Shown here piece by piece: positions 2,260 to 63,041 of a stretch of DNA of 64,000 bases (its first letter is position 1; each line of letters opens with the position of its first letter). Both the position numbers and the translations under genes were made by a program. The notes beneath the pieces were generated by a model. It saw only the letters and a list, made by a program, of their open reading frames with translations. It did not search any database and was not told the origin of the DNA. The DNA is taken from positions 384,001-448,000 of the forward strand of contig CM000430.1 of NCBI GenBank assembly GCA_000165345.1, given 5' to 3'.

Positions 2260-2706
2260 TGTAAAAACTTCACAAACTTAAACTTTGTGCTCCAGGCTCT
2301 ATTTACTACGTTAATAGACGATTCAGTCAATTTTCTTCTCAGCTCTTCAATGAGACGTCTTTGCAGTTTTATAAAGACACGACAAGTACAAACTTAAAAA
2401 ATGACTTGTCGAATAATAATATATTATAAAATCACTTTTATTATTGCTGTCTCAAAAGTACCCGCCATGGAGATTAAATAATGTTGCGCTATATTTTGAC
2501 TGAAGTTATCATAAAATTAATTAATAAGAAAATTCAACTCGTTTGAAAATGTAAATATTCTTACAAAAGAGAATTTTCAATATTCTTAGGCGGCAGCTAC
2601 ATGTATTTTATTTTTGCATGTATTTGCAAGTATTACAAAGTTTGAATTAATAGTTTTTTTAGTTGCAGAATTTAGATATATGATTTAGTACTTTCCTGAA
2701 AATACA

Positions 2707-4056
2707 ATGGATTTCAAAAAATACGAATTAATTAAAGAAATAGGGAGCGGAACTTTTGGTAAGTAGTTGTTTTGTGAAATTGTATCAAAGTTATTAGTTT
2801 AGGCCGCGTTTGGATGGCAAAAGATTTTGATAGCAATGAGTTTGTGGCAATAAAAAGAAGGCCGAAATGGCAAAATATCGTAAGGTATGTTTTGGAGTCG
2901 CTTTCTTAATTGATCAATCATTATTTTTATCAGCCGCGAAGTTGAGGCGATGGAGGCAGTTAAAGGAGAAAGGGGGATTGTACAAATTAAAGGATGTTTT
3001 TATAGTTTAACGCCAGGAGGAATAATAATGCAAAACATTGTAATGCCATTAATGACAAAAAGTTTAGGCGTTTTTATTAGAGAGAATAGGGCATTAAGAA
3101 AGCAAAACTCATCACATAGAATATCTCCAGAATTGGTGAAAAATCTTTCATTTCAAATTGTTAATGGCTTAGCTGCATTACATTCATCTGGATATACTCA
3201 CCGTGATTTCAAGCCAGACAATATTTTATTGATGGATACAGATGACAGTGAAAGAAAGTTTCCTACAATTAATATTTGCGATTTAGGTAAGTTGTAATTT
3301 GATTGGTTGCTATTAATTTTCCTTAGGGTCTTCAAAAAAACTGTTGAATAACAGTATTCACATGCCTTATGTGGTAAGCAGATTTTACAGAGTAAGTTTG
3401 CATCTGAAAAATAGTAAATGTAAATTCTTTCAAGGCACCAGAATTATTACTAGGAAGCTGCGATTACAATGAGAAAATTGATATTTGGGGTAGGTGCGGA
3501 TTATTTTTGTGATTAAATATCATTTTCTTTAGCTTTGGGTTGCATTCTTGCTGAACTATTGGCACTTGATCCTATTTTTGTTGGTAAGTATATGAAAATA
3601 GAATTGCATTAAAAATCAATTTCTTAGGCCGATGCCCAGACAAATATAGAGACAATAAAGTTAATTATAACAAACAAGGAGTTGATGAACCATTTCAAAT
3701 CCTGAAGATTATTGAAGTATTGGGGAGTCCCAACTCAAATGATATAGAATTAATTAAAAAAACGGTTCCTAAATCAATAATTAAGGTACTAGATGAATGC
3801 CTTCTTAAATCTGAAGTTTCCTCAATCTCATGGTTGGAAATATTTGAAGGATTTTTCACAGACGGGTATGTTTTAATCAATTATTTCTTTAATTTACATT
3901 TTTTTAGAGAAAGATTACTAGTAGAAATTATTTCGAATTGTATTCAATGGAATCCTACTAAAAGGCCATCAGTAAGTTGAATGATAAATATCTACAAATG
4001 AATTAAAGTTGCTTAAGGCCATTGAAATATTGAAGAGTAAATATTTTGAAAATTAA
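2707..4056 (+). CDS. CMGC-group cyclin-dependent-kinase-like Ser/Thr kinase, 9 exons
   Basis: Exons (my count): 2707-2758, 2803-2884, 2934-3286, 3327-3391, 3435-3489, 3533-3583, 3628-3865, 3908-3971, 4018-4056. All eight introns are GT(A/G)(A/G)GT...AG and 40-49 nt long. The phases join into one frame: MDFKKYELIKEIGSGTFG|RVWMAKD..FVAIKR..|..HRDFKPDNILL..ICDLG|GSS..YVVSRFYR|APELLLG..DIW|ALGCILAEL..|..NPTKRPS|AIEILKSKYFEN. This gives kinase subdomains I, II, VIb, VII, VIII, IX and a CDK-like C-terminus. The ORF-track fragments 2950-3297 and 3720-3980 are internal pieces of this gene. Confidence 0.75.
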
Positions 4057-4178
4057 ATTTATTTTTGGATTACTATTCTCGCATAATTGCATTGTGGGGT
4101 TTTAGTTTTGCGCTTTTTTATTTGCATGCCAAAAAAACTTGATTATTATTAAATTTAGAATAATAGTTTTTTAACAAC

Positions 4179-5063
4179 ATGGATTCAGAGTTAGAAGGTG
4201 TATTAGGAATTTCTGTTGAGAGTCGGAAACTACATTTAAGTAAGTTATGTTTCTTTTGCTTAATATATGCAGATTAAAAATTAGAAAAAATTTATAAGGA
4301 AATTGGCGAAATTTTGTTAAAAGTAAAGGAGCTTACTGAAATTGATAGTGCTGCAGAAATGTTTGATTATTCAAAGAGAATAGAACATTTGATGACAAAT
4401 TTTGAACAAATTAGCAGAATTAATGATGAAAATAAATTGGTGAAGAATATTTTAATTAAAGAAATATCCGGCATTGAAGGCAACATCGAAATGCTTAAAT
4501 TGGAGTTCTATAGGATTTCAAGCCGACTTTCTGATTCACTTAAAGAGAAGGATTACTTAGAGTATGAATTGAACAAACTCAAAAATAAGTACAAATCAAC
4601 CAACGATGAGTTGAACGAAATAAGAAATAAATTATCAGCAAGAAACGAAGAATACGATGAATTTAAAAAACTAAATGAATGCATGAGAAAGGAGGTCGAG
4701 GATTTAGAGCTGGCAATAACCTTGGAGGAGAACGCAATTTCTGAAAAGAGAAAGGAACTAAAAAACCTGGAAATGGTCAGCATCGGAAAGGAAACAGAAA
4801 TAAGAAAACTTGACAAATTGGCCTCCCAGACTATTTCGGAATTAAAAAGGAAAGTCAAGATAAGAGAGATAATTGAAGACAAAGTAAACGCCCCATCACG
4901 TTCCATCCCAGTAAAAGTTCGCCACGTAAATAAAGAAAGCAAAAATTCCAACCATAAAGATTTCAAAGATCAAAACAAAATACTGATAAATGAACGAGGA
5001 AAGTTGTGCAGTTCATTACAAAACATAAAAATAAAAAGAATAATGGCGCAACACATTATATGA
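4179..5063 (+). CDS. Coiled-coil protein of unknown function; the 5' exon is tentative
   Basis: The ORF 4314-5063 is Lys/Glu/Leu-rich with heptad-like periodicity (ELNKLKNKYKSTNDELNEIRNKL...). Upstream, ATG 4179 begins MDSELEGVLGISVESRKLHL, then GTAAGT at 4240 and an acceptor AG at 4283-4284, giving a 45-nt intron that joins in frame to KKIYKEIGEILLKVKELTE. The alternative is a start at the internal Met near 4359. Confidence 0.4.
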
Positions 5064-5070
5064 GGGATCA

Positions 5071-6078
5071 TTAGCCACTTAATATCGGCTTAGCTTCCTT
5101 TTGATGCAAAACTTCTACTGACTTGTTATTTTCCAATCTTACTTTAAAATCCTTTATAGTTTCCTTGATTCCTGTTTTAATATCTACCGTTGGTTTCCAA
5201 TTTAAGATTCTAATTGCTCTGGAAATATCAGGTTGTCTTTTTTTAGGATCATCCATTGGAAACTTTCTGTGCGATATTTTTAAATTAGGGTCAACAAGTT
5301 CACGAATTATTTCGCCTAGTTCTAATATCGAGATTTCATTAGGATTTCCTAAATTAATTGGCATGTTGTCTAAAATCTTCTCCCTATCTAATTTCATTAG
5401 TTTATAGAGCCCATCAACCATATCAGTAATATAACAGAAACTCCTTGTCTGCGTTCCGTCCCCATAAATAGGCAATTCTTGATTGAGCAGTGATGAGAGA
5501 ATAAAGTTTGAGACTACCCTACCATCATTAAACAGCATTTTAGGACCATATGTATTAAAGATTCGAGCTATTCTTACATCAACACCATGATTTCTATAAT
5601 ATTCCATACAGAGAGTTTCCGCGATTCGTTTCCCCTCATCATAACAGCTTCTGGTTCCAACCGTGTTTACGTTTCCGTAATAAGATTCATTTTGGGGATG
5701 AACTAATGGGTCACCATAAATTTCTGATGTAGAAGCAAATACAACTTTTGAGTTTGTTCTTTTGGCTAACCCTAAAATATTCATAGTTCCAATAAAGCAT
5801 GTCTTTAACGTGTAGATCGGATCCTTTTGATAGTGAATGGGAGATGCCGGGCATGCAAGGTGATAGATTTCTTTGACTTCTAGCTTGATACTATCAATAA
5901 TATCGTGTCGAATAATTTCTAGCCTAGGGTTTTCTCTACACTGGCCAATATTAATCACATCCCCACTGAAGAAGTTATCCAGAGCAAGGACATAATAGCC
6001 CTTACTCAACAGATACTCAACTAGATGAGAGCCAATAAACCCAGAGGCTCCAGTTACAAGAACAGTAATATCTGACAT
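5071..6078 (-). CDS. UXS: UDP-glucuronate decarboxylase / UDP-xylose synthase-like NAD-dependent epimerase-dehydratase
   Basis: 335-aa intronless ORF. VLVTGASGFIGSHLV is the Rossmann GxxGxxG motif. LDNFFSG, YHLACPASP, KTCFIGTMNILGLAKR, YDEGKRIAETLCMEY (catalytic YxxxK), VRIARIFNTYGP and NDGRVVSNFI align closely with the UXS1 family. Confidence 0.85.
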   Translation of the reverse strand: MSDITVLVTGASGFIGSHLVEYLLSKGYYVLALDNFFSGDVINIGQCRENPRLEIIRHDIIDSIKLEVKEIYHLACPASPIHYQKDPIYTLKTCFIGTMNILGLAKRTNSKVVFASTSEIYGDPLVHPQNESYYGNVNTVGTRSCYDEGKRIAETLCMEYYRNHGVDVRIARIFNTYGPKMLFNDGRVVSNFILSSLLNQELPIYGDGTQTRSFCYITDMVDGLYKLMKLDREKILDNMPINLGNPNEISILELGEIIRELVDPNLKISHRKFPMDDPKKRQPDISRAIRILNWKPTVDIKTGIKETIKDFKVRLENNKSVEVLHQKEAKPILSG

Positions 6079-6146
6079 TTTTCTTTGTATTTAAATTTGG
6101 AATTTGAAAATAACTCTCCCAGAGCAAAAAAAATGGGAAATCAAAT

Positions 6147-6231
6147 AGCGCGCGCCCTCACCCACATGATACCATAGCGCCATAGGCGGCAAAATGTGTG
6201 TAGAGTGTGTGGGTATCTTTCGCGTTTCCCC
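6147..6231. promoter_or_regulatory. Cluster of GC-rich motifs in the divergent UXS / MORN promoter (AGCGCGCGCCC, AGCGCCATAGGCGGCAAAAT, TTTCGCGTTTCCCC)
   Basis: Three GC islands within 85 bp in an otherwise AT-rich intergenic region. GCGCCAT and GGCGGCAA recur in other promoters in the window. TTTCGCG is E2F-like. Confidence 0.4.
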
Positions 6232-6430
6232 ACATGTCGAAAAATTGTAATATTCAACTTTGTAGAACAATTTCAAGTAATATAAACTTTGAGTGGTGAG
6301 ACTTTTTCATCTGTAACCATAAATCATTTCTACTTCCCAGATTTTAAAGTTCTTATCACCATTCACAAGCTATTGAATATAAATAAGGTAACATTCTGAG
6401 TGAATTATTGATTGACTTGCATAATTTAAT

Positions 6431-8035: not shown

Positions 8036-8208
8036 GATAAGAACAGGTAAATAGCGAAACAATAGATTTGAATTATATGTATATGAATTTAGTTTCGTTG
8101 TAGGAAGTTTTTTTGTAAATTTGAGATTAAAAGCATTAATACTAGTATTTTTTTTAACAATTTATTTGCGCGGATTTCTTTTTAGTTCAATTTAATAAAA
8201 TTTTATTC

Positions 8209-11631: not shown

Positions 11632-11831
11632 CAAAAGCGAATGGCGGTAATTTCAGCGCCTACTTTTTCTTAATGGTAATGTGTTGTTAGTTCTTTTTAT
11701 ACTCGATGATTTTGGGCAATGACCAAGCTTATTCTTCATAATTCAAGATTGTGTGCGTTATTTTTAAGATACCAAAATATTCTTTGAAGGTTTTGCTAGT
11801 CTGTGGGTTTTACAAATACAGGAACTTATAA

Positions 11832-13246: not shown

Positions 13247-13953
<707 letters not shown>

Positions 13954-14179
13954 AGCAATTTTAACTACTCAAATTATTTAATCAAAATATTATATTCTAC
14001 TAGTTTTGTTATAAATTTCATTTTCTTTTATTTAACTTTTAGTCGGATTAATCATTTGTTTAAGATAGCGCCAATTAAAGTACGACGTGTAATTATTACT
14101 ATTTGTGCCATTAAAGTCGATGCACTTTGAAATAAACTGATTAGATAATTACTATTGTGTTTCTGAAATATGTAAAGAT

Positions 14180-18334: not shown

Positions 18335-19169
18335 GTTTTTTTATTTTTCAATTATTTCTTAATGTAATTTTTACCAAAGGAATTCAATTGAGTTAAAAAT
18401 ATGGCAATAACATTTAGTTTAATAATCCAAGCCAATAATAATATCACCTATTCACACAAAAAGGATATCAAGTATTCTTGGAAAGTAATTCATAATAATA
18501 GAATTAACCAAATTTGAGATAACCTTTAAAAATAAACCCAATTTGAGCTTATTCTCTGTACGGATTCATGAAATAATAGTTATTCTCACGCCAGTAATTT
18601 ATGAGAAACTTTGGATTATTCCAAATTATTTAAACTTTGAAATTTGATCAATTTAGTTTGGAATTATTTTGCTTTTTCACGAATGCCTTATTCTAGAATA
18701 TAATAAATTTGTCAACGGCTCACAATAGGGATTCACACGCTCCAGCGCCCATGGTTATACGTAATAATATTATACAAAAATGCATAATTTTTATTTTAGA
18801 TCAAAACAAATCAGTTTTTTCTTACTAGTTTGTGTTAAGACTTGTTTTCTTCAGCTCGTTAAGCATATAAAAGCATGCAATAATAAATTGCCAGACTAAC
18901 TACTTTAACAACCTAACTATGCAATGTAAATATTACCTTTATGAATTTATAACCTAGATATTCCTACAGAATACTAATGACCTATATATATCAATCGTTT
19001 TTTTGGGCTGAAGAGCATAATTTTATCTGCCTCTTTCGAGTTTCCCGAATTTTTTTGCTTTCCTCTAGCGGAAGAACAGGAAAATTCGGAATTCCAGTCG
19101 AACAATTTTTTTCAATCTTCAACTTGTTGAGAACATTGCAAAATGACCATTTTGGGCACTCACAGTTTT

Positions 19170-19484
19170 NGNCANTACATTNAATANATCAACNNTACTT
19201 NNAGNNNNNNANNTNNNGNNANTTTNNCGNNGGAGATNGATTGTNNAGNTAGNANTNANCTNGTTNNNTTAATNNAAANNTCAATTNNGGAATCTGANTN
19301 NTNTTNNNANTANNANTANNNNTAANNGNANAANATTTNNANGNNNTTNNTNGAAGTTNANTANNTAAATCNNCAGNNNTTGAAAATGANTTNNNANNAT
19401 CGCTTNNTNNNTTTNGNNNNTNNTNGCTNGATTTGCAAGCNCNTGAAANNTNNNANNNCNANATANNNNTGCNAATNNGGANAN
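19170..19484. other. Block of interspersed ambiguous bases (N), probably low-quality or unresolved consensus
   Basis: About half of the positions are n, mixed base by base with called bases. Isolated n also occur at 19889 and 20087-20088. The block overlaps the 3' end of the 990-aa minus-strand gene. Confidence 0.9.
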
Positions 19485-22253
19485 TTTCTGTGGATCCATA
19501 TCTATTGGGCTTTCAAATTCGATTTTTTCACTGTCTTGCGACAAATAATTTATTTCAAATTCACTTTTTATTAACAAGCCTAACATCTCCATAGCTTCAT
19601 CATCTATTTTACTATAGTTATTCAATTGAGAAAATATAACATTTTTAATCACTTCATAAATATAAGGATTGTATGGCACAATAATTTTCAAAAAATTGTT
19701 GTAAATTTGTTCCAAAACAATAAACAAATTGTAAATTGAACCAAAAACTCTTCTTATTCTTTTGCCCGTTTTCTTATTTACAAACTCTCTCTCTTCTATT
19801 AAATTGCCATCTAGATCAGTCCCATCATAAATAAATTTCGACACCTTGTCAACCAGTTTGACTTTATTGAACAAATTCTCCAATGTTGAATATGACCCNA
19901 ATCTGATTCCTAATTCAAAAATAGTTTTACACTGAACTGAAATGTGGCTATTTTCTCTTCTCTTTATGAATACATCTAAAAGCCATACCCAAAATTCAGT
20001 ATTCAAATAATTAATTAATTCATGCTTTTCGTCATAAAGTAATGTTGTTTTAATTATCGTTAATAACGAAACCATATATGCTGTTTNTTTACTGTTTGTA
20101 TCAATCTCAAATTTTGAGATAATAAACTCGCAAAACTTAGTTAAATACGGCTTGATAGCGTTAATAATTTTGGTTTTCAGGCACCCTATGACATTAATGT
20201 TCACAGAAAAAGCAAGATTTATTACTTCTTCCAATATACCGAGAGATCTCAATTTCAATATGTAAATATTTTCGTTTATTATGTTATTAGAATTGTGAAC
20301 TGATAATTCACAAAAAATCTTTAGCATTGATGAATCAATTATTAGATTGTTCAAAAACTGCTTAGACTTTTCTAAAATTTGATAAATTGAGAAATTTTTA
20401 ATCATATCTCCATCATTTGTCGCTAATATCAAACAATTATTGACTTTAGTTCCATAAATTGTGTCATCTTTATTTTTTCCAATAAAATTTGTTTCTCCAT
20501 TCAGTATTTCATTTGAATTAAATCTTTTTCCAGAATTTTCATATTCAAAATTATTGTTCACGCCTATTTTTTTTTGAGAAGTTTTAAAACTTGAATTGTA
20601 CAATTGATTACCTTCTGTTATAGAATGTTCAATATCAACAAACTTGACTGAATTAGAAATTTCACATTCTGCTCCGCACGATAGATTTAGATTTTTGTTC
20701 AAGTCATTCTGAAAATATAAACTTCTTAGATTGTTTAACTCGCTAGAAAATGTGGGCCATTTTATTCCAATGCTAGTCATATTTAAAGGTAACCCAGTAT
20801 GCTCTGGCTTCAAATATTCTACTAATCTAAAAATAACCTCAATTATTCCGGAAGCTACATTTATAATATCGGGCCTAAACTTGAATTCTGGTTTCTCTAC
20901 AAAATCTTCTTGGTTATAACTCATTACATCCAAAAGGGGAGAAAGTAAATTCTGAATAAAGTCCGACTCAATAACCCATTCATATATTATTGGCGAAATC
21001 CCAACTTCTAAAAGATGTTCTTGAATATACGGCTTGTCTGTACTAAATTCGCTAATAAAGTTCACCCGGTTTGATTCCAAATACTCAAAATCCAGTATTG
21101 AGCTTGAATATTCTCCAAATTTTGATTCTTGTTGGCAATTATTCCCAATAATTCCAAAAAACCTTAAAAAAAAATCCTGTATAGAGGAATAATTAATGAA
21201 CGGTATAATTACCAAAGGCCCATTTAATTGAAGAAATATTGAAGTGAATTCTTTTTGATGTTTTGAAAAGCAAATTTCTAATAGTCTGCCTATATAGAAC
21301 GGAGTTTGGTTGCTGTCACAAACAATGGGATTATCCTTAAGCAAATATGAAATTGGATGCTCCTCTACTAAATTGTCACAGTTAGCAATTAAGCTCATAT
21401 TTTTTAAATAGTTTACTATCTTCATGATTAATTTCGGAATTTGTTCCTCTGAAAATATACTGATTATTTCCTTAGAACTCTCCAGTTTAGAACACCTGTT
21501 TGTATTGTTCGATTCTAGATTAAACTCAGGAAAATTCTGCCTTATTAACCAAGCATAATCAACTTCAGAAACGGCTCTCGAAATAGGCAGCAAAAATGAA
21601 CTTGCTTTTTCATTCAAATTGATATTTATAAATGGTTTTTCAGAGAATAATATGTTGTTTGGACTCACACCTAGTAAATAATAATAAAGTATCGATGAAA
21701 TTACATTGTAATTCTGGAAGTCGCACTCAAGTTCCTTTTCATAAAACAAATTACTCACAGGAAGTAAAATATCTATCATTGAATCTATAATAAGGCTTCC
21801 AAATCCTTCAATTAAGAAATTTGAAATGCAATCTTGAAATAGAGTATAAAAATATAATAGATTTTTGTTGCCCCCCCCAGAAGAATAATGAATTTCTGCT
21901 GCATGGTCTTTCAAGATATTCAATATTGATGAAATTATTTTTTTTTTAGTATCAATTTCGATATCAATTTTACTTAAATTTGGCCCATCAGCTACAATTA
22001 ATCGGTGGCTTTCTAATCCGGCATCATGTAAGTTTCTTGTACAAATAGTATTTGTTTGGCTATCCCTTGATGAATAAAAATTTATGGAACTGCCATTTAT
22101 TTTTGAGATGTTTATCTCGTTATGATATATGGAAGCTTCATCCAAATTATTATCGGAGGCATTTAAATTAAGTTCTTCTAAGCTCTGCCTTGATATTATT
22201 CGCATGTTTTCATTAATTTTACGTTTACCTACCATTTCATTATAAAACTCCAT
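19281..22253 (-). CDS. Large hypothetical protein (at least 990 aa); the 3' end is unresolved because of N bases
   Basis: Long minus-strand ORF with ATG at 22253. Its C-terminal 70 or so codons fall in the N block, so the true stop cannot be read. No recognised domain. Confidence 0.55.
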   Translation of the reverse strand: MEFYNEMVGKRKINENMRIISRQSLEELNLNASDNNLDEASIYHNEINISKINGSSINFYSSRDSQTNTICTRNLHDAGLESHRLIVADGPNLSKIDIEIDTKKKIISSILNILKDHAAEIHYSSGGGNKNLLYFYTLFQDCISNFLIEGFGSLIIDSMIDILLPVSNLFYEKELECDFQNYNVISSILYYYLLGVSPNNILFSEKPFININLNEKASSFLLPISRAVSEVDYAWLIRQNFPEFNLESNNTNRCSKLESSKEIISIFSEEQIPKLIMKIVNYLKNMSLIANCDNLVEEHPISYLLKDNPIVCDSNQTPFYIGRLLEICFSKHQKEFTSIFLQLNGPLVIIPFINYSSIQDFFLRFFGIIGNNCQQESKFGEYSSSILDFEYLESNRVNFISEFSTDKPYIQEHLLEVGISPIIYEWVIESDFIQNLLSPLLDVMSYNQEDFVEKPEFKFRPDIINVASGIIEVIFRLVEYLKPEHTGLPLNMTSIGIKWPTFSSELNNLRSLYFQNDLNKNLNLSCGAECEISNSVKFVDIEHSITEGNQLYNSSFKTSQKKIGVNNNFEYENSGKRFNSNEILNGETNFIGKNKDDTIYGTKVNNCLILATNDGDMIKNFSIYQILEKSKQFLNNLIIDSSMLKIFCELSVHNSNNIINENIYILKLRSLGILEEVINLAFSVNINVIGCLKTKIINAIKPYLTKFCEFIISKFEIDTNSKXTAYMVSLLTIIKTTLLYDEKHELINYLNTEFWVWLLDVFIKRRENSHISVQCKTIFELGIRXGSYSTLENLFNKVKLVDKVSKFIYDGTDLDGNLIEEREFVNKKTGKRIRRVFGSIYNLFIVLEQIYNNFLKIIVPYNPYIYEVIKNVIFSQLNNYSKIDDEAMEMLGLLIKSEFEINYLSQDSEKIEFESPIDMDPQKXSXXAXXXXXXXFXXLANXXXXXXXXXAXXXXHFQXLXIXXXNFXXXXXNXXXLXXXXXXXXXRFXN

Positions 22254-23025
22254 TCTTACTTCCTTTTAAGAATGGAATTATTATAAGGAATAAGTATTTC
22301 TAACCTTTTAAACTGTTTTTTATGCAAGCTGTGGAGTAAATGTTCCCTACTAACTTTTTATTAATAAAATGTTACCCCACACAGGAAATATTAAAAATAA
22401 AGTATGTTCAGCGCACTAAAATCAATGTTATATCGACACTTTCCTGGGTAGACTTAACTTCGTTCGCCACAACAATCTCTTCCATTAATCCGACAAGAAC
22501 ATCATTTTATCCTATTACCAATATTTACTCATGCAAAGAGACGAGACAGTTGATGGCGCCATATAAGGTTCGGAAATGTTTTCTTTTTCTTTTTTGCATT
22601 TGTGATAAACAATTTGATGGATTTGTAAGGTAATGGATATGTTAAATGCTAATGTCGTATAATGACCGCTAATCATCAAGCTGCTCACTAGCTTTTGAAT
22701 TGATACTTTTAAAAATGATTTAAGATCGTAATATAAGTTAATTTTAGATTAACCAAATCATCTACAAAAATATGTTTTCAACTATTTTACTTTATTATTT
22801 TTAATTTTAATTTATACGGTTCAAACAATGAAATAAATTTATTTAATGAAGTTGTCTGATAAGTCTGTGTCTCCACCATTATGTCGAAATTACATGATTA
22901 ATTGTAAAGTAATAAGCATCCTAAAATAAATAACCAGAATAAAATCTGCTAATTTTTGTTGAAATTCACGAGATGCAAACTCATTTCTAGATTAGTATAA
23001 ACACTTATTATATTTCATTTTAAAT

Positions 23026-25944: not shown

Positions 25945-26462
25945 CTACAAAAAAAGTTTGTAAGTATTAACTTTTTCAACCAAATAGATGTACTTTTCAT
26001 TATAAATACAAAATGGTAATTAACTTTCAGAGTTGCATAAAATCAAAACAGTTAAACTTTTATTAGTAGATGTCACCATAGTATCTATAACATCTCCACA
26101 TGCAAAGTACTCTAACGACTAACTTACCTGAAATCCCACCTTGTGTTTCATACATTTTGTATCAAATCTATTCGCAATATCAAGTTAAATGTCCAAAGAA
26201 GTGGTATGATAACTATTGGTTAGTATAGCATTAAATACTAATTCCCTCGATTTCAATTCTATCACACATTCGCAAAGACTTTGTACTGGAAAAAATACCG
26301 CCTAAATTCATTCATATATTTACTAAAAAATAGGATTAAAATTCAAATAAAAATAATTAGATCTAGTCAAAAAAAAAAGCAAGCTATTGCCACAGAAATG
26401 TTCATAAAATATAATATAAGGATTTAGTAGCAAAACACCCTAATTTATTTCTACCAAACAAG

Positions 26463-28134: not shown

Positions 28135-28232
28135 AATTCTTTATTTCTGGAAAAAAAAGTTGTTAAAAACCTATATCTTAATATTGCTTTAATTGCGCCG
28201 AAGGAAAAGAGAGTTGAATCTGAATAAATAAA

Positions 28233-30151: not shown

Positions 30152-30758
30152 TGATTACGATTTATTGGTTTTGAAGAAACTTAGACGCCGCCATGTTAAA
30201 AAAGACCTCGCATGCTTAAAAAATTAGATTGACGATGAAAAATAAATTAGTAATTAATTAAACATCAGAAAGTATTATATCGTTCACTAATTAGTTTGAT
30301 TTGATTATTATATTTTGTATTTAGTCTACTTCATTTTGTCGCCTTTGGAAATAGAAACTAATATATCGAGTTTCAGACTATTTAATTTTCTAATAGGTTA
30401 ACGAATTTAATAAGAATTCGTGCAAAAAGTACATTAAATTTGAAAATGATTATAGGAATGGCTCTCAACTATGATTTATCAAATTATCATTCTATGTGCC
30501 TCAAAAAATATTTCATGTAAGCCCAATTTAAAAAAAAATTTACCCAGCACAACAATTTGAAGAACTCATTCCGTGCGGAATGATCCAGCGATAAATTAAA
30601 ATATTAAATTATATCTTTGCAGAAAAAATTTTAATATAGAAGAAAAGCATTTATTTAATTGGTAATGTACTTAAAAGTTAACTACAGAAACCATACTTTA
30701 TACAGAGGCAATAATTATTGAAATCTACAAAAAAAACGTAAAAGCGAGCAATCAATCA

Positions 30759-31676: not shown

Positions 31677-31701
31677 GGGGGGTGGCGGCAATATTCGCGG
31701 G
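31677..31701. promoter_or_regulatory. GC-rich element GGGGGGTGGCGGCAATATTCGCGGG in the divergent promoter between proteasome alpha-1 and TFIIH p52
   Basis: The only GC-rich island in a 590-bp AT-rich divergent intergenic region. It contains GGCGGCAA, also seen at 6186-6193, and an E2F-like TTCGCGGG. Confidence 0.35.
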
Positions 31702-32129
31702 TTAATAATTAATGAATAAAAAGTCTAATTAAAATAAGTATAGACTGGTGCCTAAACATTAAACTACCTTTTTGAACACCAGGACATTAGTTAATTAGAA
31801 ACTAGAATAAAACACAAAATTAACTAATTTGATTCATTTTGAAATATTGTGTGAATTAATCTTGAGAATGCACCTTCTTAAATTAGTTAATTTTGAAAAT
31901 TTTTATTTACTAAGTTCATGTAAAATTGATACTTCAATCAAATTATTCCTTATTTGGCTTTTAAAACAGATTTTATATATCTTCATAAGACATTCTTTTT
32001 TAAACAATGTGATAAATAGTTGTTTTTTTGATGCCGCCATTTATATGACCCTTAATTATTCATAAAAATTTCATTAATACGGAGATGAATTAGCTTTTGG
32101 CTCCGCAAAAAGTTGCGTTTGTAGTAATA

Positions 32130-35885: not shown

Positions 35886-36080
35886 GTTATATTCTAAGTA
35901 GCAACAATTTATGTCGATATTTGATTTTAAGACGCAAATCAATAGACACAAAATTCCAGCGCCAGATGATTAATTGTAAAGGAAATCATTGACCGAAGAT
36001 AATGCGATTGAAATTTTTTAGCAGTTCTGTTTTCTATTAGTGATATAAAGAATTTCACAATATGTAGAGGGAGAAATATC

Positions 36081-37127: not shown

Positions 37128-37285
37128 TTTTATAAATAAAATGAAAAGCAAATAATACCATGGCGCGTTGAAGTTGCATAAATAATATCGTTCTTTTCCT
37201 CTTTATAAAAATTGACCAATAACTATATTAATTGAAAAAGCTATAAATGTTTAACTATAACTTTTAGTTAATATTCAGACAAAAT

Positions 37286-41383: not shown

Positions 41384-41395
41384 TGCATGCATGCA
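41384..41395. promoter_or_regulatory. TGCATGCATGCA motif, about 120 bp upstream of secreted-protein gene 1
   Basis: Overlapping copies of TGCATGCA. This octamer is a known ApiAP2-bound promoter motif in Plasmodium, with orthologous binding reported for Cryptosporidium AP2 domains. Confidence 0.4.
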
Positions 41396-42155: not shown

Positions 42156-42575
42156 TTTGTCTTAAAAAATGAATAATTCAAATAATATTATACTCAAGAA
42201 TTAAAATCCTATGTTCAATTTAAACAATATTGCTAGAACTTCCTGAAATAGGAAAAATGGCTGCATGCGGAAACAGATTGCATGAATAAAAATACATGTA
42301 AAACGATACTTGTCACAAGTGACATTCATACCGCCATGTGTACGCATGATGACCGCCGAGTGTACATGTGGCTGAATTTACAGGTAGATCATTGTGGGGT
42401 CATTTTTACGCCAGTAAATTCAAATAATTTATAATTTATGTGGAAAAAAATATTGCCAGTTATTACAATAAAGTATTTTTAAAAAATATAATAAAAAGTT
42501 GTATATCGCACAAATTCGTAAGTTTGAAAACATGAAGGAGTAGTTAGGCAATTTATTACATTTTAGAAATTGAAA

Positions 42576-47311: not shown

Positions 47312-47888
47312 TGAATTAACAAAATATATATAATATATTTTAAAAAATGAGTATTAGAGCTTCTGGCTGTAATACCGATTATGGTAAAATAAACAACCAA
47401 TATTTAATTTTGTTACTTAGATTTGATTTTAATAAAAATAAACACAAAGAAATGATACTAATTACACACAAACCCTATTAATTTATATCGTCACTCATAT
47501 TGAAACATATGCATCAGGATAATCTCCCGCCAATGAATTGAATTCCTATTAAACTTTTTTATGTTTTTAAAGCCTACTCAGAAATTATTTTTCTAAAATA
47601 TATGATTAATCTTTTAATTGACAATATATGCTTGCTATTAATTCAATTATATTTATCTTCAGTTGAAGTAAATTACATTTTTCTATGTTAAAAATTATTT
47701 TTGGTTCCCATTTTTTAATATTATCGTTATATTTGAAAAATGTATACCCCTATGCCAAATTTGATCTTGAATAGCTTATTAAATGTGTAATTTAATGAAC
47801 TATCTTATTCTAAAATTTTTTTTTTTTTAGAGGGCAAATTTGCGCCATCTAGATATTACATTACATGTAAATATTAGGCTTTTAGATC

Positions 47889-53787: not shown

Positions 53788-53847
53788 TTTTTATTAATCG
53801 GATTTGTTAGCGCTCGATTAAAATAAAATTTTTATTTTTTGGCACCA

Positions 53848-56766
53848 TCAAATCCACTTTTTTAGCTGATTTCTCTTTGAGAAATAAATGGAAATAGCTG
53901 TGATAGTTAGTATTAAAAATACCGTATTGATTATATTATAATAATTGAAATCATAAGGTAAAAGATCGAATGATGTATTTGGATATATTTCAAATACCTC
54001 TAGGGAATTAAATCCAACTGAAAGTAATTTACTTTTTGATTCATATGTTTCATGTGGGAATGAAAATATTTTTTTGCTGTTGAATTTCGTTGAAAATTTA
54101 ATTCTTTCTGATAGAATGGATTGGTAGAAAGGTAGATTACTGTTATGGATCAAGTTTTTCTTTTTACTTTTGTTAGGTCTTAATGTAGAGAATAATCTCT
54201 CTGGGATGCATTCAAATACGTTGCTTTTCTCACTCCCAAAGAGTATTATTTTGGAAGCTAATGATTCTGATGTTTTACTTAATAATGAGTAATCAATTGG
54301 TAGTTCATAGTTGTACAAGAATGTGGTTTCTTGGACATGAACATGCTTTTCAGAGTATATTTTTGACTCTTTTACATTTTTTTTGCTGGAAACCAGGAAT
54401 ATAAATTTGTCTAGCATATTAATACCCGTAGAAGTTTCATCTTTAATGAATTGAAATAATTCAAGAATTAAAATAACCGGTACTTTGTAATTTGAATGAA
54501 ATGACGTAATCAAAATGATATTTTGAAAAATTTCAAGTGTAAATGGAGGTTCAAACATTTTAGGCAAAAAAGATGAATATATTAAATTTCCATTAATTTG
54601 ATTAAACAAGAGAACTTTCTTTTTACTCGTAATAACGCCTAGCAAATACGGATAGTCAAATCTATTAATAATATTATATTTTTCATCAACAATTACTGGA
54701 AAACTTTTGCAATAGCTGCACTCAGGTGTAGAATAAACTGAAATTGCTTCGTCAAGATCAAATACATATTGCCAATGCACTTCTGAATCATACCCAGAGA
54801 TCATTTTATAACATTTAATTATGTTAGATTCATTTGTAAAATAAAAATAAGATTGATCTTTGATATTTACAGTTTTGTTGTCTAAGCCCAAAAATTTTGT
54901 TTTATTATGTTTGTCTAACAATATTAGCAGTGGGTTAATATTTTGCTTATTTGAGGTAAAGGGAGGGGTAGAAACTATCAATTTTGATGACTCAATATAA
55001 CTTTCAATTGAAATAGTTTTCCCAGAAAGAATTTCTATTCTTAAAATACTGGATTGATCAACAATAACCAATTCAGGCAATATCTTTCTCAAAACAAATA
55101 GCTTTTTTTTATATAGCTTAAGATGATCCTTTTGTCTTAAACTATCATTTCTCCAAATTATCTGGTGGTTATCAATATTATAGGCAAAAACTGAAAAATA
55201 CTTATTTATCGTAAACATAATAGTCCCGAATATCATCATATTTAAATTAGTTTTTGAATAGTTCGAGTAATTGTATAAATGTGCTCCGTTAATAAAACTT
55301 GAATTTTCGTAATTAATAGTATTACCTAAATTATAAGTGTGATTTCCTCGATTAAGATAAAACAAAATATTATTTTTATAATAGTCAGGGTCTGCACTAG
55401 TTGAAATTACGCCTTCATATATGCCATTTATTTTTGGACTAAAGCATTTTAAGGTTGTCCCATCACAATTTAACGAAATTGAGACTAAAAGTGAGTCATC
55501 CCACTGTAATAATAAGCCCATATTAGTAGAATATATTAAGTTTACGATTGGGCCATGCACCATTTTATTGTTTTTATTGAAATATTCAATCTTTAAATTG
55601 TATCTAAAAATTTTGTTGTCTCTAATGGAGGTAAAATAATTGAAGATAGTTGTAATACTTAAAATATTTGTAAGATCATTGTAACTTATTATTACTATAA
55701 ACCTAGAGTCATTTTCTTCGTCTTGAATAATCATTGCATTAGAACTTTGAACATTATCATTAATTGAGGAAAATGATTCAAGTATATAACTTGGATTAGA
55801 TTCAAATATATGGAAAATTTGATATCCTTTATTATATTTTTTCTTTGTTAATGTGATACCCATTTCAGAATTTTTGACCTGTCTTAGAGTTAATTCCTCC
55901 AAAATTGAACTGCAAATATTATTAAATGAAGACATATTAACTTTTGAATAAAAGTAATTTTTATTATTCTCGTCAATATTATAAGTAAATAGTCCGATAC
56001 TTTCGTTAATTGTGAACAATAAATTCATTATTCGACTTTTACCATTTAATGTTATTATCCCAGAGTTATAAAGAATTTTTTTTTCAGGGTCTATTTTTAT
56101 TTCGCGTCTAGGGTACTCATTAAGATTCTTATCGAGTGGGATAAAATCATAAATTTCGATTTCATTTTTCAATTCATTATAAACAATAGTTAATTGTTTG
56201 TTCATTTCATCAGTGTGGAAAAATAGGAAGATTTTGTGGGTACTTAATGAAAATCGTTCAAGTATACGACCATTTGACTCGTCAATAACGAAGTAGTGAT
56301 TGCCTATTGTTAGGAGAAGTTTACCAGGCAAATAGAATAATTTTCTTGTAAACTTTGAAATTGAGACATCCAATTCCAAGTCCCAATTTAGATTAATTTT
56401 TCCAAGGTTGTTAACCTTTATTTTTCTTAATACTGCTCTGCTATTAAATTGTTTTACAAGAATAATAAATGATTCGTTCCCAATTTTGATAAAATCGATA
56501 AGCTGATCTTGAGGAGAGTATTCTTGAATATTTCCTAGAATATCGGAGTTTTTCGTAGATATCACTCTTCCATTTTCAAAAAAAAACAGATTATTTTCCG
56601 AATGGTCAATAACTGAATAAATTGAGTCAATTCCAACTTTACTAATTCTCTTTGTCGAATTTATCCTTTCAAAAAAATTGCAAAATAAAGTAGCTATTAA
56701 AAGAAAGGTAATTCGAAGACAAAACATTTGGTTACGAGTTAAAACTAAAATTTGTGATAAAAACAA
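53848..56766 (-). CDS. EMC1: ER membrane protein complex subunit 1 (EMC1)-like type I membrane protein
   Basis: 972 aa. The N-terminus is hydrophobic (signal peptide). The large lumenal domain is beta-rich. The C-terminus FDLLPYDFNYYNIINTVFLILTITAISIYFSKRNQLKKWI (single TM plus basic tail) matches the EMC1 DUF1620 end ...FDVLKDDYDYV...TM...KRLAQVKLLNRAW. Confidence 0.55.
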   Translation of the reverse strand: MFLSQILVLTRNQMFCLRITFLLIATLFCNFFERINSTKRISKVGIDSIYSVIDHSENNLFFFENGRVISTKNSDILGNIQEYSPQDQLIDFIKIGNESFIILVKQFNSRAVLRKIKVNNLGKINLNWDLELDVSISKFTRKLFYLPGKLLLTIGNHYFVIDESNGRILERFSLSTHKIFLFFHTDEMNKQLTIVYNELKNEIEIYDFIPLDKNLNEYPRREIKIDPEKKILYNSGIITLNGKSRIMNLLFTINESIGLFTYNIDENNKNYFYSKVNMSSFNNICSSILEELTLRQVKNSEMGITLTKKKYNKGYQIFHIFESNPSYILESFSSINDNVQSSNAMIIQDEENDSRFIVIISYNDLTNILSITTIFNYFTSIRDNKIFRYNLKIEYFNKNNKMVHGPIVNLIYSTNMGLLLQWDDSLLVSISLNCDGTTLKCFSPKINGIYEGVISTSADPDYYKNNILFYLNRGNHTYNLGNTINYENSSFINGAHLYNYSNYSKTNLNMMIFGTIMFTINKYFSVFAYNIDNHQIIWRNDSLRQKDHLKLYKKKLFVLRKILPELVIVDQSSILRIEILSGKTISIESYIESSKLIVSTPPFTSNKQNINPLLILLDKHNKTKFLGLDNKTVNIKDQSYFYFTNESNIIKCYKMISGYDSEVHWQYVFDLDEAISVYSTPECSYCKSFPVIVDEKYNIINRFDYPYLLGVITSKKKVLLFNQINGNLIYSSFLPKMFEPPFTLEIFQNIILITSFHSNYKVPVILILELFQFIKDETSTGINMLDKFIFLVSSKKNVKESKIYSEKHVHVQETTFLYNYELPIDYSLLSKTSESLASKIILFGSEKSNVFECIPERLFSTLRPNKSKKKNLIHNSNLPFYQSILSERIKFSTKFNSKKIFSFPHETYESKSKLLSVGFNSLEVFEIYPNTSFDLLPYDFNYYNIINTVFLILTITAISIYFSKRNQLKKWI

Positions 56767-56870
56767 AATATTATTTCCAAAATATGAATATTCTAAAATT
56801 TAGATACATCTATCGTGATAAATTAATTTATACAGTTTTTGGTAACCTTTTGGGGGGCAGCGGGATTAAA

Positions 56871-58559: not shown

Positions 58560-58769
58560 TTTATAGTTAACTTAATATTTCTACTATTGAATCGCTGAAT
58601 CTTTTTGTCAAACATGACCGCTGTCGATTAATTATTAAAATATTTGGAAAAGGCGCCTATACATTCAAAAGTGAATTACAATATGAACATTCATGACATT
58701 ATAAAAGGGAGTAATACATATTCTTTCAAAAATAATCTAACTAATTGAGACAAATTTACTGAAATAGTG

Positions 58770-59120: not shown

Positions 59121-59180
59121 ATGCCTTGAATAAATTTCGAGAAGAGCTAATAAAATAACAAAGCGTTGCAGAGCGCATGC

Positions 59181-59201
59181 AAAAAAAAAAAAAAAAAAAA
59201 A
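59181..59201. repeat. Poly(A) tract (A21) in the 5' region of the small myristoylated-protein gene
   Basis: 21 consecutive A. GCGCATGC lies immediately 5' on the plus strand (59173-59180). Confidence 0.9.
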
Positions 59202-59307
59202 TACACAATTATAAATATATATATCTACGTACAAGAACGCACTTACATATTTTTATTAAAAATCAATAAATTAATATTTTAATAATTTATTTTTTAAAGT
59301 ATTAATA

Positions 59308-60516
59308 TCATCTGTGTAAATCATCCATTAGAATTTCTTTAAAACTAGGGTTGCTTGTGCCACCTTTTCTTCTTACTTCATTTTCAAAAATAGAGAAATC
59401 TTCTGAAACATTGGGAATCGACATATTTGATGAATCAATTCCCTCACAAATGAAACAACAACTTATTCTGTTTGATTTCATCCTTTTTAACAAAATTGAG
59501 CTATCGTCGCTTTGTATGTCTCGCTTTGATTGATCACAATCAAATCCAGCTTCAGGGTCAATGATAAGGTCTCCAAACTCAAAGTCAAGAAATTTGGATA
59601 TATCAAAGTTACTAGTTGTAAATGGTGGCCTTGTCATAGTAGGTAAAAACCATCTCCACGAAAACTTCGAGCCAAAAACCTGAATAAATAAGGAATATGC
59701 ACTTTTTTTTTTACTATATAAGTATTCTTGTTTTAAATGTTCAATTCCAGTTGTATTATTGATGATACAAACGACTTGATCAACAAACATTGCTATACAG
59801 AAAATTCCAAATATCAAGCCCTCAATAATCACACTAAAACCGAGTATAAACGATATTGGAGTGATGGTGCAGTCATAGTAGGGCGTTTCATTGGCTTTTT
59901 GGTTAAAATTTAATAATTCAGTTGTAGAGCTTAAAAGCTGAAAATCTAAATAAGAGTCATTAATATCGCTTGGATTTGGTAAAGGATATGAGATGCATTT
60001 ATAAAAACGAAGGCAAATAAGTATTAGCGAATAAGCACAAAAAAGGAACACATAAGCCAAAAATAGCAAAAAATGTTTTTGATTATTTATTCCAACACAA
60101 TTATTAATCCAGGGACAGTGGTGGTCCATTTTAAATATGCACCTTTTGCAAACCGAACAATGGTGCGTCCTTGGAGGTTTTAGATTATTACATTTCGCGC
60201 ATGAGCGAATAGAAACAGTTTGAGTCTGAAGTTCAATAGGTAATAAAATCTCGCCTTTATCACCATTGTTTGGCATCACTCCGGGATCAGTTGTGGTACA
60301 TGATAGATGACAAAATGAACAAATTATATATATAGAGTTACAAAGTATTAAATTAAATATAAATAAAATCCGTTCTCCTGAATCAAGAAATTTCTTTATG
60401 AAAAAGAAATTTAATATCAAAGCTGAATATAATAGTAGGAGTTCTGTAAGAATCATGCACAATATCCCGCAAATATCGTAAACAAACCAATTTGGTCTTG
60501 AGAAAATGTTCATCAT
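59308..60516 (-). CDS. DHHC-type protein S-acyltransferase (palmitoyltransferase)
   Basis: 402 aa with at least 4 TM helices. DHHC-CRD: [48 protein letters not shown]. Confidence 0.85.
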
Positions 60517-61056
60517 TCCATTATAATTGTTTCCATATAAATCTAAAAGTTATTTCAGAACCTTTAAGGATCGAAATTAACTAACTTGAACAATTTACTT
60601 GCATTCAAGTATAGCTTGACCGCCTTAAAGAACAACATAAAACATCGTCACGTTCGCCGCCATCATTGTCCAACAACACATCTGAAGAAGAATACAAATA
60701 GAAACAAAGAGAATATTAAAAATTCATTTGAATAACAAAAAGAATTATTAAAATACCTAAGGCGATTAAGTTAATATTCTATTTCAAATAAAGATCCAAG
60801 TACGGAAGTTTGTGCTTGAATGCATCGCAAACTCTAGCAGATCAAAGTTCAGAATGCAAGTTTATAACAACAAATCCGTAAATTATTAATAGTAGAATAT
60901 ATACGAAACTCCCAAGTGGCTCAAAAACTGCCTATGCTTAACCGATAAGATTGAATTCTGAGGGCATTTAAGCGTAAAAACAGTCAAAAGTTACCTTTTT
61001 TTTTATCCTTGGAGTTAAAGTAGGGTATCAGTAGCTTAAAATATGTCAAACACAAG

Positions 61057-61347
61057 TTACTTATGAGCTGCCATATTCAATGGTCTTGCTACAGTTCCCT
61101 CTCTAAATCCATTCTTAAAGCGTCTAGCCATGGTCTTGAGATGCCTCATTCTACCAGTTCCAGTTGTTCTACGTCTCTTCGCCTTTTGACCCCAGTTGTA
61201 TGACCTCATTTTCGCTGATGGATAACCACATGAAGCACATCGTTTCTTTTGAACCATATAGGATCTTTGGCCGCAACGTCGGCATAGGAAATGAGTCTTG
61301 CCATGGTGCTTACCACGACTACCTGTACCTTTTCCTGCCTTACCCAT
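61057..61347 (-). CDS. RPL37: 60S ribosomal protein L37e
   Basis: [71 protein letters not shown]... matches L37e: C4 zinc ribbon CRRCG...CASCG and the conserved [18 protein letters not shown]. Confidence 0.9.
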
Positions 61348-61693
61348 GTTTCTTGAACTACTCTAACTTAGTGTATTACACAGTCTTACTCTTAAGAATG
61401 AGGAAGTTTTGTACAGATGTTACTTTTATTCGATTTAGTAATTCGGCAGAGAAAACTGTCTTATTAATTTAAGGCCCACGTCTATGATGAAGACAAATAA
61501 TGGTAACGTAATATACATTAAATCGCGCTTTTAACTTATTTTTAGTTTACATTCATCTGAATAATAAGACAGGACAAAATGGGCGTGTCAATTGCTATCA
61601 ATTTAATCAATTACTTAGAAAAAAATCGTACACGTCTTCTAAGCGGGGAAAAAGCTGTTAAAAAAATTAAAAAATTATTAGGACTTAGACTAC

Positions 61694-62905
61694 CTAAACT
61701 TGAATAATACGCGTAAGTCTCTGCAATCTATTTAGCAATAAGTCACCTTTTTGAACGAGCTCGTTATATTGATTTATTTTTTTGTCATTTCTACTACAGA
61801 TTATTACTTGCTTAACTTTGTCAATTGTACATGAGAGTTTTGAAGAAGATATGAAAGTTACAATATCTTTTTCTAGAAACTCTTGAGTAATTCCAAAAGA
61901 TTCTGCCATACTCAAAATAGAAACGGATTCGTATGGCTCAAGATACTGTATGTATGCCTTAGACCTGACTATTCTCAAATAATACTTGTGGTGGCGATTA
62001 AAATAATAGTCCTTCTGTAGTATATAAGTGATGTTGACTAACCTTTCGAAGAATTGGCTATACCTTCCGTAGTAGAAACTCTCGATGAATTCAAGTAAAA
62101 ACTTGTTATCTGGTTGTAGCGCAATTTTTAATATATCAGGACTAGTTAGTAGCTTTGACTTAATGGTTCTCCTGTCTATGGAAATTATCGACGAAACTAT
62201 TGTATAAAATATTAGACGATCGAATGAAATTAGTTCAGCTGCTGTGAATGTAGTTAGCGAATCCAGAAATAGTTCTGAAGCGGCAGAGAAATTTCTAGTT
62301 ATAAGATAATATATTGCCTTATAGACTTTAAATCTATTTTTCCTTTCCCAGTCACTAGTAGTTTTGAAAAGGTCCTCTGCTCTCTTAATGTACTTGCTAA
62401 TTAGATTCAGATCATTCCAAAAAAAACCTGTTCTAATTCCAAGAAAAAGCAGTTCTAACTTGAATCCGCCTATTGTTTTCTCAATAGCGACTTCTAATTC
62501 TTGTAAACTCTTTTCTTTTGAACCAATTCTAGAATAAAATACTAATTTTTTATAGTGGCAGTTTCTTACTTCTACATCACCGTAGTTTTCTCTTGCATCT
62601 TTGATTTTTTCATTAATCTCATTTAATTCACTATTATTATCTTCTATTAATACATCCAAAAACTTTTCGTCATTATCTAGAATCTTAATATCTTTACTGA
62701 GAATTTTGAATAGTGGGGCCATACTATTTTTTTTAATATATGAAAGAATTTCATTTTTCATTGATTCCTTCTCACCAAATTTACAATATTTTGAATCCAG
62801 CTGGCAAATTTTTTCTGAAAGCTTTAGATCTGGGACTGATTGTAGCAACTCCTCGGGGTTCATAGATAAGTCCAACACTTCTTTTAACTTGTTTCCAATA
62901 CCCAT
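61694..62905 (-). CDS. RPN7: 26S proteasome regulatory subunit Rpn7 / PSMD6 (PCI domain)
   Basis: NSMAPLFKIL, DWERKNRFKVYKAIYYLITRNFSAASELFLDSLTTFTAAELISFDRLIFYTIVSSIISIDR and GDLLLNRLQRLTRIIQV align closely with PSMD6/Rpn7. Confidence 0.85.
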   Translation of the reverse strand: MGIGNKLKEVLDLSMNPEELLQSVPDLKLSEKICQLDSKYCKFGEKESMKNEILSYIKKNSMAPLFKILSKDIKILDNDEKFLDVLIEDNNSELNEINEKIKDARENYGDVEVRNCHYKKLVFYSRIGSKEKSLQELEVAIEKTIGGFKLELLFLGIRTGFFWNDLNLISKYIKRAEDLFKTTSDWERKNRFKVYKAIYYLITRNFSAASELFLDSLTTFTAAELISFDRLIFYTIVSSIISIDRRTIKSKLLTSPDILKIALQPDNKFLLEFIESFYYGRYSQFFERLVNITYILQKDYYFNRHHKYYLRIVRSKAYIQYLEPYESVSILSMAESFGITQEFLEKDIVTFISSSKLSCTIDKVKQVIICSRNDKKINQYNELVQKGDLLLNRLQRLTRIIQV

Positions 62906-63019
62906 ATCGATTCTTCAAATTAACGACATACAAATTCCAGTGTATGATCTAATACTGAGTTTTTTTCTTTTATAAAACTTATGAGTAATAAACCAATCCT
63001 ACCCCTCAGAATTAATCAT

Positions 63020-63041
63020 TTGGCGGCATGCAGAAGCGGCT
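63020..63041. promoter_or_regulatory. TTTGGCGGCATGCAGAAGCGGC element in the divergent Rpn7 / downstream-gene promoter
   Basis: E2F-like TTTGGCGG fused to GCATGC. It lies between the Rpn7 start (62905, minus) and ATG 63336 (plus). Confidence 0.35.

Follow-up and report, generated by a model that had tools for sequence, protein, structure and literature searches.

In Cryptosporidium, an important diarrhoeal pathogen, the GC-box is regarded as the chief promoter element and is tied to the unusual retention of E2F/DP. A 64-kb stretch of DNA (GenBank assembly GCA_000165345.1, contig CM000430.1, positions 384,001 to 448,000 of the forward strand; hereafter the window) carries recurrent GGCG[C/G] boxes, which raises the question of whether these are functional sites, which element they represent and what binds them. 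The boxes are enriched in intergenic DNA, located in promoters and deeply conserved in position. Judged by their sequence, they are instances of the already known E2F-like upstream motif of Cryptosporidium and hence a rediscovery, and their reading as this promoter cis-element, most likely bound by E2F/DP, is given a probability of about 0.78.

About 35 genes are packed into the compact window, whose G+C content is 31% and which is assignable to the Cryptosporidium parvum/hominis clade. The HGH1 protein encoded here shares 97% identity with the C. hominis cluster representative and is fully identical to the one encoded on a 992-kb record of GCA_031892065.1; window and record agree in every base across more than 20 kb, bar one N-peppered patch. 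The first gene map was built from open reading frames (ORFs) only; the refined map added orthologue annotation and with it an intron-containing kinase, an Arf gene, RPL37e, the full g1081 and the first exons of g310 and COPI_assoc, leaving 11.1 kb of intergenic and 52.9 kb of genic DNA. Pfam and orthologue annotation back most of the gene labels (WD40/RACK1-like, UXS, MORN, kinase, HGH1, Dis3, PFK and DHHC) of an earlier reading made from the letters alone, hereafter the sequence-only reading; its Fes1 remains a tentative label. Chance expectations were derived from 1000 dinucleotide-preserving shuffles of the intergenic segments.

Enrichment and promoter placement

On the refined map, GGCG[C/G] gave 27 strand-hits (25 boxes) in intergenic DNA and 16 in genic DNA, equivalent to 2.44 and 0.30 per kb, respectively. 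Intergenic GGCGS was observed 29 times against 5.8 expected (ORF-only map), GGCGSS 14 times against 1.6 and ATGGCGS (SCGCCAT on the other strand) 11 times against 0.70, and none of the 1000 shuffles reached any of these counts. The box words were not enriched in coding sequence, with 14 observed for 19.5 expected and 3 for 2.3. Among the individual cores, SGCGCS (5 observed, 0.93 expected), GGCGGG (3 and 0.38), GCCGCC (7 and 0.50) and the symmetric form with central CG, SSCGSS (19 and 3.4), were counted in intergenic DNA. In an unbiased k-mer scan of ORF versus non-ORF DNA, the GC-rich words over-represented outside ORFs were CCGCC, GCCGCC, GCGCC and CCGCCA; a separate AP2-type word, GCATGCA, came up as well.

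Boxes occur in 17 of the 27 spacers that hold a gene 5' end, comprising all eight divergent spacers and 9 of 19 tandem ones (Fisher p = 0.012), and in none of the eight convergent spacers. The distance to the nearest start codon ranges from 35 to 411 nt with a median of about 110, on either strand. The sequence-only reading had proposed near-exclusive upstream placement in at least ten promoters while listing nine sites, and its observation is confirmed, the actual count being higher, at 25 boxes in 17 of 27 upstream regions. It had named beforehand two grounds for abandoning the motif, equal frequency in coding DNA and lack of positional bias; neither was seen within the window, where the density outside genes is about 8-fold higher, convergent gaps have no box and the boxes stand a short way upstream of start codons. 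Its nine quoted strings are all present, eight of them exactly where they had been placed, and TTTGGCGGCATGC begins at 63019 instead of 63020. The boxes it lacked start at 2587, 6151, 11641, 11655, 14067, 26297, 28194, 31682, 32033, 35958, 42330, 42352, 47526, 58650 and 60619.

In unidirectional spacers, 9 of the 11 non-palindromic boxes read GGCG[C/G] in the sense direction of the gene that follows (two-sided p = 0.065), so that a preference in orientation is hinted at, and the value is suggestive only. Some short same-strand spacers carry no GC-box, namely EMC1>g135 (60 nt, 53788-53847), NGP1>EMC1 (143 nt, 56728-56870) and DHHC>g116 (187 nt, 59121-59307), and these could be internal to polycistronic transcripts as reported for C. 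parvum.

Conservation of individual boxes across species

A syntenic region of 21 kb around HGH1 was compared among C. meleagridis, chipmunk genotype I, C. ubiquitum, SRR31860986, C. felis, C. xiaoi, C. ryanae and C. andersoni; outside this region, the comparison was with C. xiaoi (left and right thirds of the window) and C. felis (left third). The boxes at 18743 and 42330-42359 fall outside the compared orthologous loci. The density of GGCG[C/G] outside genes exceeds that within genes 4- to more than 10-fold in every compared species, and the box-to-gene distance is kept for the same genes in up to eight other species, as illustrated by HGH1 (41-63 nt upstream) and g310 (39-90 nt upstream).

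In six-species alignments of twelve spacers, 71% of box columns are invariant as compared with 16% of other intergenic columns (Mann-Whitney p = 2e-16), every box is among the 1.4-6.4% best conserved intergenic 5-mers, and alignments A1-A3 display the box as an island within diverged DNA. Counted from the first G, the conserved footprint covers -2 to +5, 8 bp in all, and peaks on GGCG[S] rather than on the flank. The boxes are under purifying selection relative to the flanking non-coding DNA.

Whether the boxes are protein sites at all was considered against two trivial origins, a by-product of composition or CpG content and a translation-context or upstream ORF (uORF) signal. The YY1 consensus is AAGATGGCGGC and the vertebrate Kozak context is GCCGCCATGG. 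Several of the quoted strings hold an ATG and resemble GCCGCCATGG, and a 10-codon uORF would begin at the ATG of the HGH1 box, were it transcribed. However, the dinucleotide-preserving shuffles fall short of the observed counts, start codons are 35-411 nt away from the boxes, which occur on both strands, and in other species TTG or GTG takes the place of the ATG with GGCG unchanged. Box 5-mers are identical in 5.71 species, whereas other GC-rich 5-mers of the same spacers reach 3.67 and CpG-containing ones 3.75 (p = 2e-6), below-average values; composition therefore does not explain the conservation. The composition/CpG artefact was rejected on the shuffles and this GC-matched control, and an origin in composition, Kozak context or uORFs, which is scarcely credible, is effectively excluded.

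The boxes are listed below with their positions in the window, strand, sequence, location and state in other species; site numbers are those of the sequence-only reading.

2461-2468, minus strand: ATGGCGGG, RACK1-like/CDK-like divergent promoter, 203 nt before the RACK1-like ATG (site 1); a box equally far upstream, at -211 in C. xiaoi and at -214 in C. felis.
2587-2594, plus strand: TAGGCGGC, about 103 nt before the CDK-like kinase start; counterpart not found in C. xiaoi or C. felis.
6151-6158, minus strand: AGGGCGCG (GCGCGCGCC), UXS/MORN divergent promoter, 74 nt before UXS; the C. felis promoter carries GGCGCGC.
6176-6190: inverted pair AGCGCC-ATA-GGCGGC (ATGGCGCT, minus; TAGGCGGC, plus), UXS/MORN divergent promoter (site 2); GCGCC-TTA-GGCGG in C. 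felis, one half only in C. xiaoi.
11641-11662: two boxes, ATGGCGGT (plus) and TAGGCGCT (minus), 13 nt apart, 176-189 nt before g165; at -212 in C. xiaoi, -181 and -193 in C. felis.
14067-14074, minus strand: TTGGCGCT, 112 nt before the zf-MIZ/PHD gene; TTTGGCGC at -101 in C. xiaoi and -103 in C. felis.
18744-18751, minus strand: weak box TGGGCGCT, 411 nt before the MAPK-like kinase (site 3, quoted from 18743 as CCATGGGCGCTG); the weakest member, with one extra G.
22553-22562: perfect palindrome ATGGCGCCAT, g1081/g370 divergent promoter (site 4); found in 9/9 species, C. andersoni included.
26297-26304, minus strand: TAGGCGGT, 143 nt before the COPI_assoc gene; seven other species have it at the corresponding position.
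28194-28201, minus strand: TCGGCGCA, 98-nt DUF3228/g184 divergent promoter; invariant in the six-species alignment, TTTGGCGC in C. xiaoi and C. ryanae.
30184-30195, minus strand: ATGGCGGC, extended ATGGCGGCGTC(TAAG), 37 nt before the HGH1 ATG (site 5); GGCGGCGTCTA kept in eight species, CGCCGTCTA remaining in C. andersoni; flank AT in the parvum-to-ubiquitum clade, TT in C. xiaoi and C. ryanae.
31682-31689, plus strand: GTGGCGGC (GGGGGGTGGCGGCAAT), 146 nt before the proteasome-alpha gene in its divergent promoter with Tfb2; present in 7/8 other species, C. andersoni among them.
32033-32040, minus strand: ATGGCGGC(AT), 96 nt before Tfb2; present in C. meleagridis, chipmunk genotype I, C. ubiquitum, SRR31860986 and C. 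felis.
35958-35965, minus strand: CTGGCGCT, 74 nt before the eEF1A-like GTPase; present in the four closest species.
37158-37167, plus strand: (CC)ATGGCGCG, 158-nt g310/Dis3 divergent promoter (site 6); in all seven other covered species, flank AT in five, TT in C. felis, C. xiaoi and C. ryanae.
42330-42359, minus strand: a pair of boxes, ATGGCGGT and TCGGCGGT, at 22 nt from each other, 176-198 nt before g188.
47526-47533, minus strand: TTGGCGGG, 216 nt before phosphofructokinase (PFK); ATGGCGGG at -196 in C. xiaoi.
47839-47849, minus strand: (G)ATGGCGCA(AA), 47 nt before the gene of an 1818-aa protein (site 7); counterpart not found in C. xiaoi.
58650-58659: palindromic core GGCGCC (AAGGCGCCTA), 93 nt before NGP1/Nog2; GGGCGCT at -96 in C. 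xiaoi.
60619-60626, minus strand: AAGGCGGT, 104 nt before the DHHC gene.
60654-60664, minus strand: (G)ATGGCGGC(GA), 141 nt before the DHHC gene (site 8); the C. xiaoi DHHC promoter has a single box, CTGGCGGG, at -202.
63019-63032, plus strand: TTTGGCGGC fused to the AP2-type GCATGCA, RPN7/g363 divergent promoter (site 9); TTTTGGCGCC at -156 before RPN7 in C. xiaoi.

At times the box is part of a larger module, as in GGCGGCGTCTA before HGH1 and TGGCGCC...CTGTCTCGTCTCTTTGCATGA before g1081, both of which reach C. andersoni. The module at the palindromic box spans about 35 bp (22520-22562; L001 17592-17630), reads TGGCGCC(N5)CTGTCTCGTCTCTTTGCATGAG, joins the GC-box to a GTCTCGTC element and a GCATG element, and is kept in nine species, C. 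andersoni among them. Upstream of HGH1, the box runs on as GGCGGCGTCTAAG (30176-30194; L001 9958-9975), of which CGTCTA is invariant in 9/9 species while the first half of the C. andersoni box differs (CCGCCGTCTA); this continuation resembles the published minor motifs WTAGACR and RMGACG (PMC3734150). Boxes often stand in pairs 12-13 bp apart, about one helical turn, both at 11641-11662 and in the fetched orthologous loci (L014 4404/4416, 9857/9865 and 20090/20102; L007 8663/8675). The inverted pair with a 3-nt spacer at 6176-6190 is kept between the parvum clade and C. felis.

The E2F-like family, the flank and the putative binder

A passage in Oberstaller et al. 2013 (PMC3734150) credits the first sighting of the E2F-like motif to Bankier et al. 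2003. GGCG and CGCCAA cores were subsequently described upstream of glycolysis and replication genes by Mullapudi et al. 2007 (PMC1779779), with which the GGCG-core box at -216 of the window's PFK gene may be compared. In the co-expression study of Oberstaller et al. 2013 (PMC3734150), Motif 3 (DTTGSCGCCH, core [C/G]GCGC[G/C]) was found in 114 of 200 clusters and Motif 4 (TTTGGCGGGAAV, core GGCGGG) in 47, so that the two E2F-like motifs together account for 161 of 200; E2F (TGGCGCCA) was named the most over-represented upstream motif, and the per-cluster consensus strings include GGCGGCA and TGCCGCC. The same over-represented motifs recur across Cryptosporidium genomes (Liu et al. 2016), and the motif stands upstream of long non-coding RNAs without fixed spacing to the transcription start site (TSS) (Li et al. 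2021). In addition, E2F is the top motif in sporozoite peaks of the assay for transposase-accessible chromatin with sequencing (ATAC-seq), more than half bidirectional promoters (Xiao et al. 2025, 10.1101/2025.01.17.633476).

The window boxes share with this family the organism group, the cores GGCGCC, GGCGGG and GGCGGC(A), the upstream-only placement, the frequency in bidirectional promoters and the occurrence in 1-2 copies per promoter on either strand at variable distance from the start. Two features of the family are found here, namely an upstream-enriched core of the form [C/G]GCGC[G/C] or GGCGGG and a location in upstream non-coding DNA (8-fold, 17/27, 0/8). The sequence-only reading was thus correct in likening the boxes to the E2F/DP site, the commonest upstream motif of Cryptosporidium, as they match the published cores and strings. 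The difference lies at -2, where the published consensus has T and the window boxes mostly have A; in the intergenic DNA of the window the strict DTTGSCGCCH was observed twice against 0.12 expected, and TTTGGCGGG not once.

As summarised in a passage of PMC3734150, which covers the structural basis given by Zheng et al. 1999, the canonical eukaryotic E2F/DP site is TTTSSCGC, with the palindrome TTTGGCGCCAAA and the plant forms TTTCCCGCC and TTTGGCGGG. It has in common with the window boxes a symmetric CG-rich core with central CG, an A/T flank, a promoter-proximal location and a palindromic version, ATGGCGCCAT. Its T-tract is missing from most window boxes, and about half of all window boxes have a 5-bp G/C core only, whereas orthologous sites of C. 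felis, C. xiaoi and C. ryanae do carry a T-tract 5' of the core and read TTTGGCG[C/G]. As a description of the window boxes the canonical 8-mer was rejected, being at chance level; WTSSCGC (12 observed, 3.4 expected) and ATSSCGC (9 and 1.4) were the enriched forms in intergenic DNA.

The sequence-only reading had regarded a 3' extension CAT(G/C/A) as a consistent feature of the boxes. On the opposite strand this corresponds to ATGGCG[C/G]. Across 29 sites, T occupies -1 in 16 and A or T occupies -2 in 26, with AT as the flank in 11 against about 3.7 expected, and -3 and -4 display no base preference. The AT dinucleotide is therefore non-random here, but the next base outward is not, and the four-base extension was rejected. 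Since the T at -1 is already contained in the published TGGCGCCA, the sole addition is the A at -2, a local excess that is real yet minor.

How much this A means can be judged from the flank elsewhere. ATGGCG outnumbers TTGGCG among the window boxes by 11 to 3, although TTGGCG appears 53 times in the published C. parvum per-cluster consensus strings and ATGGCG only 3 times, and FIRE's published motif,.TGGCGC[CGT], has no preference at -2. Orthologous sites swap the two flanks, at Dis3/g310 and HGH1 in one direction and at PFK in the reverse. It is concluded that -2 is an A-or-T position within a single element and that AT is a tolerated flank variant, not a new motif, because TTGGCG prevails by far in the published consensus strings and the flank of orthologous sites alternates, AT in some species and TT in others. 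A lineage-wide shift from TT in C. xiaoi, C. ryanae and C. felis to AT in the parvum clade was also considered (4:11 and 11:3, Fisher p = 0.009, uncorrected and from a small sample). It was not adopted, because the genome-wide C. parvum strings are very largely TTGGCG and only two sites go from T to A, with one reversed.

A separate motif behind the AT-flanked boxes, recognized by a YY1-like C2H2 zinc finger or by one of four possible E2F-DP pairings, would account for the roughly 6-fold enrichment of ATSSCGC beside the unenriched TTTSSCGC, for the 11:3 ratio in a genome whose published strings favour TT (53 and 3), and for the A at -2 that is kept in 5/5 parvum-to-ubiquitum species at the Dis3/g310, HGH1 and Tfb2 boxes while neighbouring bases vary. 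Three sites (30187, 32033 and 60656) share with YY1 and Kozak sequences the string GCCGCCAT / ATGGCGGC, and match the YY1 core exactly as ATGGCGGC. This resemblance to general consensus forms is no evidence of a relationship; unlike those sequences, the boxes show TT or GT in place of the AT flank in other species and lie away from start codons. Moreover, the orthologous sites read TTGGCG in C. felis, C. xiaoi and C. ryanae with PFK reversed, the conservation maximum is on GGCG[S], -3 and -4 lack any preference where YY1 needs A, the palindrome ATGGCGCCAT (22553-22562) suits a symmetric dimer on a CG core, and the sample amounts to 14 sites. A separate motif is accordingly regarded as unlikely. 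It is similarly improbable that ATGGCG[G/C] forms a functionally distinct GC-box subclass with its own E2F-DP pairing or a non-E2F factor, its A at -2 being kept by selection within the intestinal clade (parvum to ubiquitum) and the boxes being locally concentrated on housekeeping promoters like those of the window; were it so, the published TTGGCGCC consensus would merge two elements.

As to the binder, C. parvum has two or three genes for E2F and two for DP, which are absent from other apicomplexans. An ApiAP2 protein or another non-E2F GC-specific factor could occupy the boxes instead, the likeness to E2F being coincidental: ApiAP2 proteins are the chief apicomplexan regulators, some C. parvum AP2 domains gave no motif on protein-binding microarrays, and the window boxes lack the canonical T-tract. 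Nevertheless, those AP2 domains that were tested recognize TGCAT, CACACA and G-box motifs but do not bind the GC-box, and the E2F-like motif is explicitly classed as non-AP2 in the published work; its abundance parallels the retention of E2F/DP that is unique to Cryptosporidium; and AP2 motifs were not found in the E2F-dominated ATAC peaks of Xiao et al. 2025 (10.1101/2025.01.17.633476). Such a factor is thus very unlikely.

For the preferred reading, the element would comprise 8 bp, [A/T]-T-G-G-C-G-[G/C]-[C/T], with a palindromic full form (A/T)TGGCGCCA(A/T), and would be located in the nucleosome-free core of compact promoters, tens to hundreds of bases before the ATG, one box often serving both genes of a divergent pair. 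The likeliest binder is the E2F/DP winged-helix heterodimer, retained among apicomplexans by Cryptosporidium alone, which would contact the symmetric CG core and favour an A/T-rich flank. The CAT extension would then be the inner A/T flank, in which T is preferred at -1 and -2 takes A or T, A being commoner here. Purifying selection is proposed to keep the boxes because a sequence-specific factor binds them, and binding by E2F/DP would activate transcription. The family identity, the presence in open chromatin and the existence of genes for E2F and DP are taken from the literature.

Several points weigh against this reading. Canonical TTTSSCGC (1 observed, 0.75 expected) and TTSSCGC (3 and 1.9) are not enriched in the intergenic DNA of the window; all six core positions are G or C in 13 of the 25 boxes, the others having GGCG[C/G] followed by A or T; and the core-promoter position was deduced from the distance to the ATG rather than from a mapped TSS. 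A 2025 review further states that E2F/DP function lacks validation in Cryptosporidium, and the literature search found no later experimental paper on it.

Considering that an E2F-linked GC-box is already the working view of the field, the finding adds nothing in kind. What is added is site-level evidence that single boxes keep their place in about nine species, a footprint measured at 8 bp, and the observation that the textbook T-tract is dispensable, because A and T interchange at -2. The list of sites may guide the choice of probes and mutations for binding and reporter experiments.

Neighbouring motifs and genes

The AP2-type word GCATGCA occurs at 7 intergenic and 3 genic positions of the window, including 41384-41395, 59175-59181, 63026-63032, 18873 and 42262. 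It stands upstream of g178 (41384) and g116 (59175), whose promoters have no GC-box, and adjoins a GC-box at 63019-63032. The ApiAP2 motif AP2_1 (TGCATGCA) is, like the box, a short palindrome enriched in the same intergenic regions, but differs in sequence and in its known binding by AP2 domains.

One gene and one stretch of irregular sequence deserve a separate line each.

19008-22253, minus strand: g1081, placed by orthologue annotation.
19170-19484: 126 isolated N's within about 315 bp in the 3' part of g1081, with others at 19899 and 20087.

This patch also has an indel relative to GCA_031892065.1, the remaining 21-kb overlap being identical, and looks like a masked or ambiguous polymorphic stretch. 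The best non-Cryptosporidium matches of UXS (5071-6078, minus strand) are bacterial, from cyanobacteria and Desulfobaccales at 56-59% identity, which suggests that this gene may have been acquired horizontally.

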